IMG/VR virus record: IMGVR_UViG_3300027908_000003 | Span: 1-64,000 of that record | Strand: one strand, 5' to 3' | Length of the DNA: 64,000 nucleotides | Origin: a virus | Part shown: positions 1,189 to 43,080 of the stretch, piece by piece | Position numbering within the stretch: position 1 is the first letter of the stretch | Layout of the letters: every line of letters begins with the position of its first letter | Translations under genes and position numbers: made by a program | The notes under the pieces: model-generated | Told to the model about the DNA's origin: nothing | Databases searched by the model: none | Seen by the model: the letters and a program-made list of their open reading frames with translations, nothing else

Positions 1189-1467
1189 ATGACAAATTCC
1201 GAGCTAGACCCGGCGGGACGCGACGTGGAGTTGCTGCGGGCTGCGGTAGAGCACCGCATCGTTTGGAACGACCACCATGAGTGCTGGGACCTCTGGCCGC
1301 GACTCGCAGGCAGAATCGAGGTCAGCGAGATCGTGCCCCTTGAGGCCGACGCACTCGACCATCTAGTGCACGTCGGCGTGATCATCCTGCGGTCCGATCA
1401 CCGCATCTGGGTTTCGGATCACAGTAAGCGAACCCTCGCGCAGTGGGAGGAGATGACCTGTGCCTGA
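1189..1467 (+). CDS. island ORF A, hypothetical (92 aa)
   Basis: The ATG and first four codons lie in AT-rich flank and the rest in GC-rich DNA. N-terminus MTNSELDPAG is paralogous to the starts of ORFs B and C. Confidence 0.6.
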   Translation: MTNSELDPAGRDVELLRAAVEHRIVWNDHHECWDLWPRLAGRIEVSEIVPLEADALDHLVHVGVIILRSDHRIWVSDHSKRTLAQWEEMTCA

Positions 1468-1858
1468 GCTAGACCCGGTAGGGCTGCCGAACGAACGGCC
1501 AGTACAGGAGCGCGGCACGACCGAGGCCGCGATTGAAGCGCTCATCCTTCACGACTGGCAGAGCGAGTGGCGTGCGGGCGTTGAGCACTACGCGGTCGGG
1601 CAGCACTTCGCCATCGCCGTGACCACACACCCGGAGAGTCCCGAGCCGTGGGAGCCCGATGCGCTGCTGGCGTTCGTGCCTTCGAGCGGGCACGGGGTGA
1701 CGATCGTGCCGTGCCTTCGTGCTGAAAACATCTGGTGCCCCCTGGGTACCTGCTGGCGCATCTTGTGTGCTTTGAAGGGAGAGCGGCCACTGCCCTACCG
1801 CTTCACGCTAAGCGAAGCGATGGAGAGCGCCCTCAGAGAGGCGGTGCCTGATGTCTGA
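1460..1858 (+). CDS. island ORF B, hypothetical (132 aa, GTG start)
   Basis: GTGCCTGA overlap with the ORF A stop. Begins (V)PELDPVGL, encoded by the 22-nt junction repeat. Confidence 0.6.
   Translation: MPELDPVGLPNERPVQERGTTEAAIEALILHDWQSEWRAGVEHYAVGQHFAIAVTTHPESPEPWEPDALLAFVPSSGHGVTIVPCLRAENIWCPLGTCWRILCALKGERPLPYRFTLSEAMESALREAVPDV
1464..1485 (+). repeat. 22-nt junction repeat CTGAGCTAGACCCGGTAGGGCT, copy 1
   Basis: Identical to 1855-1876. Begins at the stop codon of ORF A and encodes ELDPVG of ORF B. A degenerate copy, GAGCTAGACCCGG, sits at 1201-1213. Confidence 0.9.
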
Positions 1859-3029
1859 GCTAGACCCGGTAGGGCTAGAGGCAGCGGCACTGGACGAGGC
1901 GGTGGAGAGCTACCGCCATATGTTCGCCCCTGGCGTGTCGCGAGAGTCGACGTTTCGTAATGGCTGGGCCGCTCGCGCCGCCTACCTCTCAGTACAGGGA
2001 CGGGACGGCTCGGAGCTTGATCGCCTCCGAGATGGAATGGCCGAGCGCGGATTCATCGTGGGTTGTAACCCCGACGGTGTGGACGATTTGGTCGAGGCGA
2101 CGCTGTTGGTGGTTAGCGAGCTCCTCTCAGTACAGGAGCAGCCGCCACCTCGACTGGATCGGATTTCCTTTGAGAGCGGCTATGTCACGGCGATGAGCGC
2201 CGTGTGGTCCGGGGTCTATCCGGCGAATGAGTCAGCACTTGCACTGTTCGTGAAGAAAGCGTGGAAGGGGACGGGGGCCGATGCGTCAGTACAGGAGCAG
2301 CCAGACGAGCGGGAGATTTGGCGAGTCCAGCAGATCATCGTCGGCGATCTGAGGCCCTCTCGTAAGAAGGATGCGAGAGAGATCGCGATGGCGATTCTCG
2401 CCGTGCGGCAGAAGGAGACGACGAATCCTGCGGGTGCCCCAAAGCTGACCGATACCAAGCCCGGCGTAGAACCCGTCACCGAGACACCGCAGGAGCAATG
2501 GGCGCGGGAATCGAACGAGCATCAGGCCCAAGTCGAGCAGCGGCAGGAGCCAGACGAGCGGATGCGGGTCACGCTTCTGCGGTGCGGCCAGTGCAACAAG
2601 GTGGCGTCGAAGGAGGCGTGGGACAAGGAGTGGTGGGCTGAGCGGTCACGTCGGATGAGCGACAAAGAGGCCATCGCCGAGCACGAATGGAGCACCGAGT
2701 CCACGAGCGACTATGGCCTAGATGAACGTGACGTGTGCCCTCACTGCAGCTATGTACACTCCGACAACGAGGAAAGCCACGTCGAGGAAGTGGACGGCTC
2801 CGCTCTCGCCGTGTGGGACACCGAGCAGCAGCCCAAAGAGCCAGACGGGCGGTTGAGAAGGCTGGCGGAAGCGATCCACCGCCTCAACGTGGATTGGACT
2901 CACCTACGCACTGCCTGCGGCGATCCCCAGTGTCTCGGAGACTGTGAGTACGTGCAAACGATCAACCTCATTCTCAATGATGTTCTCGGCATTGAGCGGT
3001 CGGCTGAGCAGAAGGAGCAGGGGCGATGA
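1851..3029 (+). CDS. island ORF C, hypothetical modular protein (392 aa) with CxxC pairs
   Basis: ATGTCTGA overlap with the ORF B stop. Begins MSELDPVGL. Carries repeated SVQEQP / EQRQEPDER / DTEQQPKEPDGR linker motifs and a CGQC...CPHC Zn-ribbon-like segment. Confidence 0.6.
   Translation: MSELDPVGLEAAALDEAVESYRHMFAPGVSRESTFRNGWAARAAYLSVQGRDGSELDRLRDGMAERGFIVGCNPDGVDDLVEATLLVVSELLSVQEQPPPRLDRISFESGYVTAMSAVWSGVYPANESALALFVKKAWKGTGADASVQEQPDEREIWRVQQIIVGDLRPSRKKDAREIAMAILAVRQKETTNPAGAPKLTDTKPGVEPVTETPQEQWARESNEHQAQVEQRQEPDERMRVTLLRCGQCNKVASKEAWDKEWWAERSRRMSDKEAIAEHEWSTESTSDYGLDERDVCPHCSYVHSDNEESHVEEVDGSALAVWDTEQQPKEPDGRLRRLAEAIHRLNVDWTHLRTACGDPQCLGDCEYVQTINLILNDVLGIERSAEQKEQGR
1855..1876 (+). 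repeat. 22-nt junction repeat, copy 2
   Basis: Identical 22-mer spanning the ORF B stop and the ORF C start. Confidence 0.9.
2127..2143 (+). repeat. 17-nt repeat TCAGTACAGGAGCAGCC, copy 1
   Basis: Exact copy at 2286-2302. Related CAGTACAGG cores at about 1500 and 1990. Always read in frame as (S)VQ(E/G). Confidence 0.9.
2286..2302 (+). repeat. 17-nt repeat TCAGTACAGGAGCAGCC, copy 2
   Basis: Exact 17-mer. Followed by CCAGACGAGCGG, which recurs at 2550-2561. Confidence 0.9.
2815..2830 (+). repeat. 16-nt repeat GGGACACCGAGCAGCA, copy 1
   Basis: Exact copy at 3174-3189. Encodes (W/R)DTEQQ in ORF C. Confidence 0.9.
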
Positions 3030-3889
3030 GCGCGCCAGAGCTTACGCAAGACGAGCAACGCGCGATGGAGTCCGCGTGGGCCGCTTCACCGATGCGCGGG
3101 GCGAGCAAAGTCGGCTGGCCCTGGGCGTGGCGCGCTGCGCGCGACTACTACACCGAGGACGCTCTCACTGTGCGGGACACCGAGCAGCAAGAGCAGCCGA
3201 AGCCTGAATGGACCTGGGCGCGTCTATATACGCGGCTGGATGCCGCGATCCTTGAGCACAAACGGGCCACCGCGCCGCTTAGGTCACGCGACACGGACCG
3301 CGCGCTTTGGGCTGCCTACGAGGCGATAGACCGTGATCTGTTTGGTGTGCCCAAGCGGCGGGAGCTCAGGGCACCCACAGCATGGACTGACGATTCAGCC
3401 GAGACGTTGGACGCTGCGGCCGAGCAGCAGGAGCAACCAACGGCGCGTCTAGGTGGACATTGGGTTTGGGTCGAGGATGAGCCTACGAGCACTTGGGCAT
3501 CATGCCAGCGGTGCTCGCCGACCAAGGCCTGTCCGCAGCACCAGGAGGAGGCGAAGGCGTATTGGGAGGGCTTTCGCATACGCGAGGCCGAGCAGGGGGC
3601 GCGACCCTCTCAGCGCGTCACGCACGGCCGTCACTGCATCTGCTCGGCGTGTGCCGCTCAGGACTGGGCCGAACCGGGCCTCGCGTCGTGTGGGATGCAC
3701 GGCCCTTCTTGCCCTGCGGTTTACGCACCGCTCGGTGCTGCTGGTGACACGGTGTCCGCGCCGTCGGGGGAGCAGGAGCCAGCGGAGGCGGACCCGGTGC
3801 GTGCGGCTCTGATCGAGCTTGTGCGGCTCAAGGACTGTAAGGACGGTCGCGAGTCCGTCGGCGGTAGCCCGAAGATAGAGCTAAATTAA
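3026..3889 (+). CDS. island ORF D, hypothetical Cys-rich protein (287 aa)
   Basis: ATGA overlap with ORF C. Contains DTEQQEQP and AAEQQEQP linkers. The last codons and the stop (GAG CTA AAT TAA) lie in the AT-rich flank. Confidence 0.6.
   Translation: MSAPELTQDEQRAMESAWAASPMRGASKVGWPWAWRAARDYYTEDALTVRDTEQQEQPKPEWTWARLYTRLDAAILEHKRATAPLRSRDTDRALWAAYEAIDRDLFGVPKRRELRAPTAWTDDSAETLDAAAEQQEQPTARLGGHWVWVEDEPTSTWASCQRCSPTKACPQHQEEAKAYWEGFRIREAEQGARPSQRVTHGRHCICSACAAQDWAEPGLASCGMHGPSCPAVYAPLGAAGDTVSAPSGEQEPAEADPVRAALIELVRLKDCKDGRESVGGSPKIELN
3174..3189 (+). repeat. 16-nt repeat GGGACACCGAGCAGCA, copy 2
   Basis: Exact 16-mer in ORF D. A related CCGAGCAGCAGGAGCAACC sits at about 3420. Confidence 0.9.
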
Positions 3890-3917: not shown

Positions 3918-4193
3918 ATGTCGCGCAAGGTAAATTCCCCAAGAATAATAGATATAAATGAATTTGAATCATTTATATTCAGAACAAATGGATGCTGGTG
4001 GTGGACTGGTAGTGTTGATAAAAGAAGTGGTAGAGCTATGTATCATAATAGAAATGCTGCTACTATTGCTTATGAGCTATATTATAATACTAAATTGGAG
4101 CATAGCATGATTATTAAACAAATATGCAATAATGTAAAGTGTGTTAGAAAAGATCATCTCCAACTCGCGCGCAAAACTTTCCCTGGAAGATAA
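3918..4193 (+). CDS. HNH homing-endonuclease-like protein
   Basis: NGCWWWTGS...AATIAYELYY...QICNNVKCVRKDHLQL follows the phage HNH pattern (GCWxWxG ... H.C.N..C.....HL). Starts 29 nt after the island. Confidence 0.7.
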   Translation: MSRKVNSPRIIDINEFESFIFRTNGCWWWTGSVDKRSGRAMYHNRNAATIAYELYYNTKLEHSMIIKQICNNVKCVRKDHLQLARKTFPGR

Positions 4194-4194
4194 A

Positions 4195-4512
4195 ATGTAT
4201 AGATATGTATATAATAGAGATACTGACCGACACTATTTAATGAGCGATAAGGAAATAAATATGACTACTTCACTTCCGGCGCTAATCTCGCCAAAGGATA
4301 TTGCCAATAACCCTACTGACCCTTATAGAATAATACCTTTTCTTGAGGAAGTTAGAAGAATATGGGATACTGAATCGGGAAAAACTTTTGCGCAAATTCT
4401 ACGCCTGATTTTGAATGATGAATTTGTTTTAGCAGAATGGAACAACAATACTATTTTTGAATTGTCTGATGATGAATTTCTTGCTGCTCTGCAGAACTGT
4501 AGAAATGTCTGA
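4195..4512 (+). CDS. hypothetical protein
   Basis: In frame with track ORF 4141-4512. The ATG at 4195 just after the HNH stop is the likelier start. Confidence 0.5.
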   Translation: MYRYVYNRDTDRHYLMSDKEINMTTSLPALISPKDIANNPTDPYRIIPFLEEVRRIWDTESGKTFAQILRLILNDEFVLAEWNNNTIFELSDDEFLAALQNCRNV

Positions 4513-4862: not shown

Positions 4863-5060
4863 ATGACTAAGAATGAAGCAATAGAATTAGTAAATAGCTG
4901 GGCAGAAGAAGCGGAAAATGGTAATTATCATGATCTAGCCACAATACTTTATTACTTGTCAGATACTTGCTCTTTTTCTCCAGGCAGGTATGTGATCATT
5001 AAGTCTGTTGATGAGAACCCTATTGCTAATAATATTGTAGAATTGGAGATCAATGAGTAA
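4863..5060 (+). CDS. hypothetical protein
   Basis: 65-aa ORF overlapping the LysRS start by 8 nt. Confidence 0.5.
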   Translation: MTKNEAIELVNSWAEEAENGNYHDLATILYYLSDTCSFSPGRYVIIKSVDENPIANNIVELEINE

Positions 5061-6294
5061 GTCTATCTCACGTCAACAAAAGCTAGAAAAACTGATTAAT
5101 CCTTACCCGCGCAATTTCCCCGACCGAGTTTCAATTCAATCTGTTCTTCATGAATTTAAGGTAGCAAGAGATCTAAGCCTTCTTGATGGCAATATAAAGA
5201 ACCAATCATATAAAATAGCAGGTAGAATATCTGCCAGAAGAGATATGGGTAAGAACATTTTCTTTGATTTATTCGATCAGACTGGATCTATTCAATTGCA
5301 TGTTAAACTACTAGATTTTGTAGAGAAAGATGATCTTGATCTAGAGATTGACCTTGGAGACTGCTACGGCGTAGAAGGCATATTAACTTCAAATCTTCGC
5401 GGAGAGCCACTACTGCTAATTCATAATTGGACTCTCCTAGCAAAGGCCCTCCGTGAGCCACCGGATAAATTCCACGGAATTTCTAAGCCTGAATCACGGT
5501 ATCGTCATAGGGAGTTGGATCTACTCTCCTCGCCCGATTCTCGCGCTGTGTTTAAGGCTAGAGCAGAAATTGTATTTGAGATCAGAAAGTGGCTAAATGA
5601 ACGAGACTATATTGAGATTGAAACTCCAGTTCTCCAACCAATCTATGGTGGAGCAACTGCTAGACCGTTTGTCACGAAACATAATGCGCTTGGACAAGAT
5701 TTCTTCCTCTCCATATCAAGCGAGCTGTATCTCAAGCGCGCCCTGGTGGGAGGTTATGATAGGGTTTATTCAATAAGTAGATGCTTCAGAAACGAGGGAA
5801 TTTCTCCAGAACATAATCCAGAGTTTACAAATGTAGAGATATTTGCTACTTGCGAGAATTATTTCACAATAGCAACACTTACTGAAAATCTATTACATCA
5901 TCTGTGTAAGAGATTTGATGTACCAATGTTTGAGATTGATCGAATGATGAATCTAAAATCTTCTGATTGGCCTCTCAGCAGAAAATACGCACAAAATGAA
6001 AATCTTGCAGAATCATGGGAGATGTTTGTAGACGGTATGGAGATTGCTAGCGGAGCATCTGATTTGAATGACCCTCGTGAGCAATACGAGAGGTGGCATG
6101 AAAGTTATAGTGAGGACCCAGCAACTTGTAATCCGTATGATGAAAATTACATAGAAGCACTAGAACAAGGGGCTTTGCCTTGGGCCGGAGTAGGAATTGG
6201 AATAGACAGACTATGTATGCTTCTACTAAATAAGAAGAACATTCGTGATACTATCATGTTTCCCCTTCTTCGCGCAAAATCTGCTGGAGATTAA
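5053..6294 (+). CDS. lysS: lysyl-tRNA synthetase, class II (compact, 413 aa)
   Basis: N-terminal OB-like domain. PPDKFHG...RYRHRELDL, ETPVLQPIYGGATARPF, SELYLKR, motif 2 CFRNEGISPEHNPEFTNVE and motif 3 GVGIGIDRLCMLL all match bacterial LysS signatures. Confidence 0.85.
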   Translation: MSKSISRQQKLEKLINPYPRNFPDRVSIQSVLHEFKVARDLSLLDGNIKNQSYKIAGRISARRDMGKNIFFDLFDQTGSIQLHVKLLDFVEKDDLDLEIDLGDCYGVEGILTSNLRGEPLLLIHNWTLLAKALREPPDKFHGISKPESRYRHRELDLLSSPDSRAVFKARAEIVFEIRKWLNERDYIEIETPVLQPIYGGATARPFVTKHNALGQDFFLSISSELYLKRALVGGYDRVYSISRCFRNEGISPEHNPEFTNVEIFATCENYFTIATLTENLLHHLCKRFDVPMFEIDRMMNLKSSDWPLSRKYAQNENLAESWEMFVDGMEIASGASDLNDPREQYERWHESYSEDPATCNPYDENYIEALEQGALPWAGVGIGIDRLCMLLLNKKNIRDTIMFPLLRAKSAGD

Positions 6295-9015: not shown

Positions 9016-9087
9016 GCCTCCGTAGCTGAGCGGAATTAGCACAGCCCTTCTAAGGCTGGGACGCGCGTTCGAGTCGCGCCGGGGGCA
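9016..9087 (+). tRNA. tRNA-Arg (anticodon UCU)
   Basis: Hand-folded cloverleaf. Acceptor GCCTCCG/CGGGGGC. D stem GCT/AGC with a GG loop. Anticodon stem CAGCC/GGCTG with loop CT-TCT-AA. T arm GCGCG-TTCGAGT-CGCGC. Discriminator A. 72 nt. Confidence 0.85.
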
Positions 9088-9229
9088 CTGAGGGCTCTCT
9101 CTATCTATCACCAAGGGACCAGAATCGCGCGAAATTCTCCCCGGTTCCTTGATATACTAACCAGCGCATATGCCGCGCCAGAATTGGCGCAATAGAAAAA
9201 GAAATACTTTCATGGAAGGTTTCAAATAA

Positions 9230-40742: not shown

Positions 40743-41525
40743 TTATCTCTTCCCAATAGCTGCTCTGATATCATTTTTCTTATCAGTAACACAAAATACA
40801 GTTGGGAATCCACTCGACCGGATCAGCTCAGTCACGTCTAGCTCCTGGCCGATTCCAACCTCTAATGCTATCAGGCGCACAGACTTGCGGGGCTGCACCT
40901 GGGCGAGCAGGCGGCGGGTGAGATCAAAGCCATCAGAGCCGCCCCACAGAGCCACCTGGGGCTCATGCTCCACCATCTCCGGCGCATAGCTGTCCCTTTT
41001 AGTGGTAGGTAAATACGGCAAATTAGCGAGCACACAATAAAAATCACCCTTCACGCCCTCTAGTAAATCAGCATCCTTCCAATCTACATCTAGCTCTAGA
41101 TTAACTGAATTAATAGAAGCTACATCAAGCGCATCTTTTGAGATATCTACTCCTAATATACTTAGATCATGACGCTCATTCTTTACTGCTAGTGACACTG
41201 CGCCGCTTCCAGCGCCGACATCGACCAAAGAAACTTCTGAAGGACACTCACTAACAGCAATTTCTACTAACGGTTCTGTCTCAGTACGAGGGATCAAAAC
41301 ACGTTCATCAATATACAGATCTAGCCCTCTAAACTTAGCATGTTTAGTTATATAAGCAACTGGTTCATGCTGGTTAACTCTACGAGTAAGAAGAACATTA
41401 AACTCACTAGAGTTATTTGTCTTAGCAAGCAACTCTTCTGCTTCTGCAATCGGATCAAAACCATTTACATCTGCAATAAGTGATGCAGCTTCTTCCAAAG
41501 TATAATTCACAGTTGTAGTACTCAT
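40743..41525 (-). CDS. prmC: PrmC/HemK-family methyltransferase (variant NLPY motif)
   Basis: FRGLDLYIDERVLIPRTETEPLVE, SAM motif VDVGAGSGAVSLAV, and ANLPYLP in place of NPPY. The 3' third carries a GC-rich patch at about 40815-40995. Confidence 0.7.
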   Translation of the reverse strand: MSTTTVNYTLEEAASLIADVNGFDPIAEAEELLAKTNNSSEFNVLLTRRVNQHEPVAYITKHAKFRGLDLYIDERVLIPRTETEPLVEIAVSECPSEVSLVDVGAGSGAVSLAVKNERHDLSILGVDISKDALDVASINSVNLELDVDWKDADLLEGVKGDFYCVLANLPYLPTTKRDSYAPEMVEHEPQVALWGGSDGFDLTRRLLAQVQPRKSVRLIALEVGIGQELDVTELIRSSGFPTVFCVTDKKNDIRAAIGKR

Positions 41526-42664: not shown

Positions 42665-42786
42665 CCGTTAACTTATAACTGGATAGAATCCAAACTCGTC
42701 TTGAGGGCTCCAGCATTCGCTACAAAGATTTTCGTAATACGAATTCTTTGCTAGGAATCTTCCGCAAGATGAGCATCTTTTCTTTT

Positions 42787-42870
42787 GCCCCAATGATGAA
42801 ATCGGTAAACATAGGGGACTTAAAATCCCCGGCTTGTAAAAGCTTGTAGGTTCGAGTCCTACTTGGGGCA
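42787..42870 (+). tRNA. tRNA-Leu (anticodon UAA), class II with a long variable arm
   Basis: Hand-folded. Acceptor GCCCCAA/TTGGGGC. D stem ATG/CAT with a GG loop. Anticodon stem GGGGA/TCCCC with loop CT-TAA-AA. Variable arm GGCTT-gtaa-AAGCT. T arm GTAGG-TTCGAGT-CCTAC. 84 nt. Confidence 0.85.
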
Positions 42871-43080
42871 TGACGAATTTTCCTCCCATATAGTCATCCA
42901 ATCATTCATACACGGCTTGCATAGATATCCTGCAGGCTGTCCCATTATGAAAACAGAATGAGTAGCTTGCTTATTCATTTCTCGTCTTTGATGCTGTGTA
43001 TTACAAAAATGCATTTGATCATTTCTTAGAGACTTCAACTCCAATATCCCTATAGACTTAGATGCGTATTTCTTAGGCAT
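42859..43080 (-). CDS. hypothetical Cys-containing protein
   Basis: 73-aa ORF overlapping the helicase stop. Its 3' end overlaps the tRNA-Leu 3' end by 12 nt, so the true extent is uncertain. Confidence 0.35.
   Translation of the reverse strand: MPKKYASKSIGILELKSLRNDQMHFCNTQHQRREMNKQATHSVFIMGQPAGYLCKPCMNDWMTIWEENSSCPK

Follow-up and report, generated by a model that had tools for sequence, protein, structure and literature searches.

Why should a 94-kb phage carry a gene for a class II lysyl-tRNA synthetase (LysRS), where did the gene come from, and does its product still handle lysine? These questions are raised by the first 64 kb (64,000 nucleotides; hereafter the window) of IMG/VR record IMGVR_UViG_3300027908_000003 (93,609 bp), which encode a compact LysRS homologue of 413 amino acids (aa). 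The record is a complete soil phage of about 94 kb (CheckV completeness 100%) with direct terminal repeats of 99 bp. Its guanine-plus-cytosine (GC) content is 39.7%, and its genome encodes a terminase, a portal, a DnaE-like polymerase, a primase, DnaB, UvsX and a lysozyme. Few synthetases have been studied as thoroughly as LysRS, which is a drug target and whose lysine pocket is treated as fixed. In the natural lineage to which the phage protein belongs, two pocket residues that are otherwise invariant are replaced jointly with four of their neighbours, the remaining catalytic and tRNA-reading machinery being left untouched. The most defensible account of the gene is that it encodes a tRNA-Lys-directed synthetase of a paralog lineage with a rebuilt pocket, which appears to have been captured by soil phages of about 90 kb and then trimmed.

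Family membership was assessed with profiles and with a structural model. Pfam matches were obtained to tRNA-synt_2 (PF00152, 229 bits) and to the OB anticodon domain (PF01336, 41.7 bits), and LysRS models headed the NCBIfam ranking (PRK00484, 410.6 bits; TIGR00499, 366.1 bits). A sequence-only reading of the window had called the protein a phage-encoded class II LysRS homologue with motifs 1-3 and an OB domain, which these scores bear out, and the segments that it quoted are all present (PDKFHG, RYRHRELDL, GGATARPF, ELYLKR, FRNEGISPEHNPEFT, DWPLS, EMFVDGME and GIGIDRL). Placement in another class II family, which it had named as a way to be wrong, was not found, LysRS models being the best. 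Its suggestion of an EpmA-like enzyme did not hold: the EpmA model TIGR00462 gave 148.1 bits against a cut-off of 286.9, the phage protein has an OB domain, and EpmA keeps the Y/N/F/E pocket residues and most of the insertion discussed below. Membership of the AspRS/AsnRS group was likewise rejected, with scores of at most about 150 bits against cut-offs above 340 and with an Asp, not a basic residue, at the specificity position. An AlphaFold2 model built from a 56-sequence alignment had a mean predicted local distance difference test score of 80, with low confidence at residues 194-221 and 358-361, at the C-terminus and at residues 246-255, a stretch that includes the motif 2 loop, and the top Foldseek matches to this model were all LysRS structures.

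Residue comparisons drew on two alignments: a printed one to LysU of E. coli (1e1o), in which the chain is numbered as in the literature, and a direct one to the LysS, LysU and EpmA sequences of the E. coli genome NC_000913. Every ATP and Mg ligand of LysU (R262, E264, H270, N271, F274, E414, E421 and R480) is present, as R246, E248, H254, N255, F258, E323, E330 and R386 of the phage protein, and the alpha-amino ligands E240 and E278 correspond to E224 and E262; catalytic and alpha-amino residues are invariant across the 56 aligned sequences. In a human LysRS-tRNA structure, R136, F144, Q155 and E195 read U35 and U36 of the anticodon (PMC11878792). They align with R63, F70, Q81 and E118 of the phage protein, residues that vary little or not at all; the motif 2 loop, which reads C74 and C75, is strictly kept across the clade. 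Because all these residues are kept, the protein has the look of a competent catalyst that is still made to bind a tRNA with UU in its anticodon. A tRNA-Arg(UCU) was considered as an alternative acceptor and set aside, the U35 readers being unchanged.

The residues that surround the lysine side chain are another matter. In human LysRS the lysine chain is stacked between Y341 and Y499, and its epsilon-amine is bound by E501 (PMC11878792); these residues correspond to Y280, F426 and E428 in LysU and to F264, A335 and D337 in the phage protein. When 39 compact members of the phage type were compared with 263 ordinary LysRSs, nine positions proved to be fixed differently. Seven of these are, in LysU numbering, Y280 (Y in 263 of 263 ordinary enzymes, F in the phage clade), Y283 (Y in 86%, C in the clade), S397 (S in 89%, W in the clade), R412 (R in 95%, A in 97% of the clade and S in this protein), N424 (N in 95%, S in the clade), F426 (F or Y in ordinary enzymes, A in the clade) and E428 (E in 263 of 263, D in the clade); the other two are residues 223 and 375 of the phage protein. 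Six of the seven listed are taken to form the wall of the side-chain pocket or to adjoin it, the last lying just before motif 3. The pocket signature of this protein reads FCWSSADL, and Y280F, S397W, R412A/S, N424S, F426A and E428D are common to all 39 compact members. The phage signature occurred in none of the approximately 263 ordinary enzymes, nor in E. coli LysS, LysU or EpmA. The sequence-only reading had staked its claim on an unmutated active site; the ATP, Mg and alpha-amino ligands are indeed intact, whereas the residues for the lysine side chain are replaced throughout the clade. That such a change might be a general trait of viral or compact LysRSs was rejected, since the LysRSs of the huge phage LR756504 and of a giant virus (GVMAG), and the partly shortened ones of Bryobacteraceae, all keep Y/N/[FY]/E.

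The compact homologues retrieved from a search of 5.8 billion proteins form a tight group of 403-477 aa with 46-71% identity to the query; in a representative library at 50% identity, the group amounts to two full-length representatives plus fragments, after which the score falls from 494 to 454 bits at the start of ordinary LysRSs. Nine members lie on contigs of 87-106 kb. The reading frame is intact in all 39 compact members, which at 47-71% identity keep every catalytic, alpha-amino and anticodon residue, and 97 positions, including all catalytic ones, are invariant over the 33 members aligned. The gene is, from these alignments, evidently under purifying selection. Three IMG/VR relatives of 91.4, 91.3 and 60.4 kb have 73 of about 161 crude open reading frames (ORFs) in common with this phage, and all three carry the LysRS gene in a variable early region, where it is among the few genes common to the four related phages. 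In three near-complete genomes a tRNA gene lies at most about 4 kb from it.

The same pocket was found in cells. A full-length protein of 516 aa, P0091, carries six of the nine signature positions, and a search with it returned ten more full-length proteins that carry the signature F..W..S.S.D and are 498-546 aa long; one is, by its name, from a Solirubrobacteraceae metagenome-assembled genome (MAG), and two lie on contigs of 252 and 277 kb. The contig of P0091 itself was not found in IMG/VR, and a metagenome scan gave canonical relatives alone, at 59% identity or less. Among 201 genomes of the order to which the MAG belongs, 193 had a LysRS match and about 28 had at least two; the label Solirubrobacterales follows the titles of loci L052 and L054 and the source names of homologues, and the unpublished genomes G041 and G062 enter only the tallies over 201 genomes and one canonical signature (L203). 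Gene calls in these high-GC loci are crude. In five of five two-copy genomes that were checked, mostly on megabase contigs, one copy was canonical and one variant. Canonical copies have the pocket Y/N/[FY]/E and the signature YYSRNFEP, or differ from it by one or two residues; variant copies read F-[YGC]-W-[AG]-[SG]-[SG]-D-[LP]. Across the whole lineage the signature is Y280F, S397W, R412A/G/S, N424S/G, F426A/S/G/C and E428D, which the phage protein shares. Catalytic and anticodon residues are retained in every variant, apart from D or Q in place of E at one anticodon reader and E414D in the cellular forms.

Phylogenetic analysis joined the two sets. In a tree of 39 rows under a site-heterogeneous model, eight phage sequences, the cellular variant groups vA and vB and P0091 formed one clade with full support in the Shimodaira-Hasegawa-like approximate likelihood ratio test (SH-aLRT 100), nested within the Solirubrobacterales LysRSs (SH-aLRT 99). 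A tree of 85 rows without the cellular variants had already placed the phage clade with these actinobacterial sequences (SH-aLRT 97), though P0091 was unresolved in it, and a smaller LG+G4 tree also recovered the variant clade. This nesting leads us to read the phage gene as a captured and subsequently miniaturised member of the paralog family; by tree and signature it is from a distinct LysRS paralog lineage and not from a housekeeping lysS. The lineage is undescribed. A 2022 review of duplicated aminoacyl-tRNA synthetases (aaRSs) lists for LysRS just LysU, PoxA and LysX (PMC9437257). Full-length cellular variants pass the NCBI LysRS equivalog cut-off with 450-568 bits, so that annotation pipelines name them lysine-tRNA ligase. 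The sequence-only reading was thus borne out in part: right on the family, it was blind to the main feature, the pocket and the cellular lineage behind it. Further divergent LysRS-like paralogs, with pockets M..F..S.D.E and A..R..A.N.E, were observed in the same Solirubrobacteraceae MAG (G005; L184 and L188; P0216), and since they occur in one MAG, LysRS duplication with pocket change may recur in Solirubrobacterales.

The size of the phage protein is due to a deletion, a lesser feature than the rebuilt pocket. Matches to profiles and PDB entries are split in two, query 8-288 aligning with model 8-290 and query 306-410 with model positions of about 390-494, so that about 90-95 residues are absent between motif 2 and the next core strand. 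This agrees with the sequence-only reading, which had put the protein about 90 aa short with the loss falling between motif 2 and the DWPLS/E.F..G.E segment. The missing part, about 303-388 in LysU, is a beta-hairpin and a helical subdomain between the post-motif-2 helix and the next core strand. In human LysRS, the channel by which the CCA end enters is constricted by three insertions specific to LysRS (371-381, 388-396 and 417-438), which also impose an order on catalysis, and R442 and K446 contact the acceptor arm (PMC11878792). Human positions were mapped to LysU by offset (+61 before the gap, +73 after it), and R442 and K446 fall within the gap under either. The subdomain was lost stepwise: in P0030, a clade member of 477 aa, some of the hairpin survives, as does the strand motif PTFV. 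The OB domain of P0030 also holds an insert of about 45 residues with two CxxCxGxG motifs, resembling a DnaJ-type zinc finger, and P0020, P0028, P0029 and L004 have unrelated Cys-rich (CxxC) or low-complexity inserts exactly at the deletion junction. Chromosomal LysRSs of Bryobacterales (L007-L015 and L020-L026; Bryobacteraceae/Terriglobia) are about 30 residues short in the helical part of the insertion, an independent partial reduction in which the canonical pocket is kept.

What could such an enzyme do for the phage? The codon use of this phage was compared with that of 96 genes from sampled Solirubrobacterales genomes, whose sampled loci have a GC content of 67-73%. Lys codons make up 6.8% of phage codons versus 2.5% in the sample, a 2.8-fold difference, and AAA alone makes up 4.3% versus 0.5%. 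The codons AGA (2.1% versus 0.2%), UUA (2.5% versus 0.02%) and CAA (1.8% versus 0.3%), 6- to more than 100-fold rarer in the sample, are exactly those of the three tRNAs of the phage. Two of these lie in the window, as the sequence-only reading had noted, tRNA-Arg(TCT) and tRNA-Leu(TAA); the third in the whole genome, tRNA-Gln(TTG), lies outside it. Extra charging of tRNA-Lys would fit the same codon logic. No tRNA-Lys was found among the tRNA genes of the four related phage genomes, so the acceptor must be a host tRNA. Among the other phage tRNAs, G002 carries a tRNA-Ile(TAT), and G001 has a 97-nt tRNA-like gene (G001:44120-44216, -), to which ARAGORN assigned no anticodon, beside its tRNA-Leu(TAA). 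As to the host, comparison of the DnaE-like polymerase with those of cultured phages gives no usable call, the nearest being just 27-31% identical, and no nucleotide match to this phage was found in the phage collection. The ancestry of two genes, the LysRS and a methyltransferase described below, may point to a Solirubrobacterales-like donor or host. To our knowledge, almost no phages of Solirubrobacterales are known.

Taken together, these observations suggest the following course. The gene product would be a working class IIb synthetase of LysRS type, made early in infection. Its unchanged anticodon-reading OB domain would bind host tRNA-Lys, and its unchanged site for ATP, Mg and the alpha-amino group would form the aminoacyl-adenylate. 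L-lysine would most likely still be the amino acid attached, and an AT-rich, Lys-rich phage in a GC-rich, Lys-poor host clade would gain charging capacity. The gene would descend from a paralog lineage that arose in Solirubrobacterales, some genomes of which keep it beside the canonical enzyme, and the insertion subdomain of about 90 residues would have been lost later, in phages. That making Lys-tRNA-Lys is still the main job of the phage enzyme we hold to be about as probable as its opposite.

Several points weigh against that job. The protein falls below the curated cut-offs of the two LysRS models (468 for PRK00484 and 427.6 for TIGR00499). Y280 and E428, invariant in the 263 ordinary LysRSs and in LysS, LysU and EpmA, are both replaced together with four neighbours, and it is the human equivalents of such residues that make the stacking contacts with the lysine chain and hold its epsilon-amine (PMC11878792). 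That cells keep a canonical and a variant LysRS side by side argues that the two are not equivalent. The three human insertions, and with R442 and K446 the acceptor-arm contacts, fall inside the deleted span. A tRNA-Lys(UUU) gene, of which the phage has none, would be a simpler fix if Lys decoding were limiting. Finally, a phage of 40% GC on a host of about 70% GC would be unusual, and the host is proposed from the ancestry of two genes alone.

The main alternative is a change of selectivity, by which the variant lineage would activate a cationic amino acid other than lysine, or lysine while excluding an analogue poisonous to the canonical enzyme; the phage copy would then put an alternative amino acid at Lys codons, or sustain Lys-tRNA charging when the host enzyme is blocked. 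Six or seven coordinated replacements are invariant in the clade, two of them at positions otherwise 100% invariant, and their net effect is the loss of a hydrogen-bonding hydroxyl, an Arg and an aromatic wall, a shortened acidic residue and the gain of a Trp. In E. coli, the LysRS replacements Y280F and F426W weaken the binding of thialysine and confer resistance (PMC12546413), and duplicated aaRSs with altered specificity or drug resistance have precedents (PMC9437257). The coexistence of variant and canonical enzymes in the same genomes and the canonical pocket of other viral LysRSs fit as well. Yet S397W, R412A and F426A could swap space so as to leave a pocket of lysine size, the exchange of E for D is conservative, replacing Lys across a proteome would be costly, and nothing nearby hints at a special amino acid, the phage neighbours being without family matches and the cellular ones being argF, lgt and prmC. 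We regard such a change as possible but doubtful. If it were true, some Solirubrobacterales and a phage family of about 90 kb would load a non-lysine cationic amino acid on tRNA-Lys or run an antimetabolite-proof channel for lysine, and the phage would re-tune or protect the decoding of its own very frequent Lys codons.

A role outside translation, in which the lost insertion would open the active-site entrance for synthesis of the signalling nucleotide diadenosine tetraphosphate (Ap4A) or for transfer to a non-tRNA acceptor, seems improbable. LysU, itself a duplicate of LysRS, acts as an Ap4A synthase (PMC9437257), and the insertions deleted here are those that make the entrance of human LysRS narrow (PMC11878792). 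However, the anticodon readers and the motif 2 loop that reads C74 and C75 are strictly kept over 47-71% divergence, which is hard to explain unless a tRNA substrate is needed, and the protein-modifying relative EpmA has lost the OB domain that the phage LysRS keeps. That the gene is a decaying or neutral passenger can hardly be credited: although its surroundings are a hyperplastic early region crowded with small ORFs of poor conservation and it stands beside an HNH endonuclease gene, every one of the 39 members has an intact frame, 97 positions do not vary over the 33 aligned, and few other genes of that region are common to all four related phages.

The charging of host tRNA-Lys with lysine stays the preferred reading, though not a secure one. 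As to the second gene of apparent Solirubrobacterales ancestry, the sequence-only reading had pointed to a release-factor-methyltransferase-like gene in the window, and its product is indeed of the HemK/PrmC family, with 150 bits for TIGR00536 (cut-off 115.5) and 189.9 bits for TIGR03534 (cut-off 199.1). In group vB, the variant lysS is overlapped by, and co-oriented with, a gene for a second PrmC-family methyltransferase, lgt and the ornithine carbamoyltransferase gene lying further upstream; the cluster argF - lgt - second prmC - variant lysS was observed at L217:6118-10204 (G203), with equivalents in L214, L215, L216 and L219, and the genomes that carry it have two genes each for PrmC and LysRS. 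Two PrmC genes were counted in three vB genomes and one in each of two genomes with a single LysRS, and a PrmC copy of vB type (at least 58% identity) occurred in 8 of the 201 genomes, all eight with at least two LysRS matches. No PrmC-type neighbour was found at the locus of the group vA variants. Transfer of variant LysRS and variant PrmC to the phage as a module was not supported: in the methyltransferase tree, which has long branches, the phage copy groups with a canonical Solirubrobacterales PrmC and not with the LysRS-linked copy, and NLPY in place of NPPY is found both in the phage enzyme and in nearly all sampled Solirubrobacterales PrmCs, canonical ones included (L221-L259). For this reason the phage methyltransferase is read as a second gene of Solirubrobacterales ancestry and not as part of a module.

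Features of the window discussed here (positions in nucleotides from the start of the window)
Feature	Position	Strand	Basis or remark
ORF of 123 aa without assigned function	4141..4512	+	upstream of the LysRS gene in two related phages too
Small upstream ORF	4863-5060		3' end overlaps the LysRS ORF by 8 nt
Shine-Dalgarno sequence GGAG	5045..5048	+	4 nt before the LysRS ATG
Variant class II LysRS gene, 413 aa, compact, remodelled pocket	5053..6294	+	ORF call, Pfam, NCBIfam, AlphaFold2/Foldseek
OB-fold anticodon-binding domain, residues 54-128	5212..5436	+	Pfam, alignments
Class II catalytic core, residues ~146-407, motifs 1-3	5488..6273	+	Pfam, alignments
F264 codon (LysU Y280)	5842..5844	+	
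Junction, residues 286-305, in place of the ~90-residue insertion subdomain (LysU ~303-388)	5908..5967	+	
W306 codon (LysU S397)	5968..5970	+	
S321 codon (LysU R412)	6013..6015	+	
S333, A335 and D337 codons (LysU N424, F426, E428), EIASGASD segment	6049..6063	+	
tRNA-Arg(TCT)	9016-9088	+	same variable early region as LysRS; present in 4/4 related phages
HemK/PrmC-family methyltransferase, NLPY motif	40743-41525	-	present in 4/4 related phages
tRNA-Leu(TAA)	42786-42871	+	present in 4/4 related phages

The LysRS ORF starts with ATG and its frame is intact. The phage genes that neighbour it gave no family matches; the ORF of 123 aa adjoins the LysRS gene in G002 and lies about 200 nt from it in G001. 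Further upstream, a block of about 62% GC at 1189-3889 stands within a region of 37-40% GC, and its ORFs had no Pfam or PHROG matches; the HNH endonuclease gene (3918-4193) follows it. Outside the window, an early-region ORF of 385 aa (G000:91452-92609, +) is kept in three of three related phages at 48-63% identity.

Compared with known systems, the phage LysRS has the two-domain layout of bacterial LysS and LysU (TIGR00499, PRK00484), an N-terminal helix and OB domain followed by the class II core, and the same motifs, ligands and fold. Unlike them, it is without about 90 residues between motifs 2 and 3, its pocket is replaced and it scores below the family cut-offs; in cells, its lineage is a second copy beside the canonical enzyme. 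EpmA/PoxA/GenX, the ligase that puts beta-lysine on EF-P, is likewise a LysRS-derived paralog with a non-housekeeping function, but it has no anticodon domain and retains the canonical Y/N/F/E and most of the insertion, the phage LysRS being the opposite on each count. The core of yeast- and archaeal-type AspRS is also without the inserts that narrow the CCA channel of LysRS (PMC11878792), whereas the sequence, the anticodon domain and the acidic specificity residue of the phage enzyme are of LysRS type. Like IleRS2, SerRS2 and ProRSx, the variant is a second copy beside a housekeeping enzyme with changes in the active site, and the review that describes these duplicates lists none of this kind for LysRS (PMC9437257). 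The lineage offers a test case for amino-acid specificity in class IIb and for the need of the insertion between motifs 2 and 3, and possibly a natural LysRS that is insensitive to analogues or re-specified, the small size of which is of interest for genetic-code engineering.

Among viral enzymes, the one huge-phage LysRS that was compared, from LR756504.1, a 636-kb uncultured phage (L183:1492-2628), came to its 378 aa by a different route: the N-terminal helix is missing, the OB domain is incomplete and the insertion is shortened. Unlike the phage clade described here, it keeps a canonical pocket, as does the giant-virus enzyme with Y/N/[FY]/E. The aaRSs of huge phages of more than 200 kb are also phage-borne and related to those of the host clade, and are thought to support phage translation (PMC7162821). 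By contrast, the present phage is a rare example of one that encodes a single aaRS at a length of only 94 kb, and the ancestry of its genes hints at a host clade, Solirubrobacterales.

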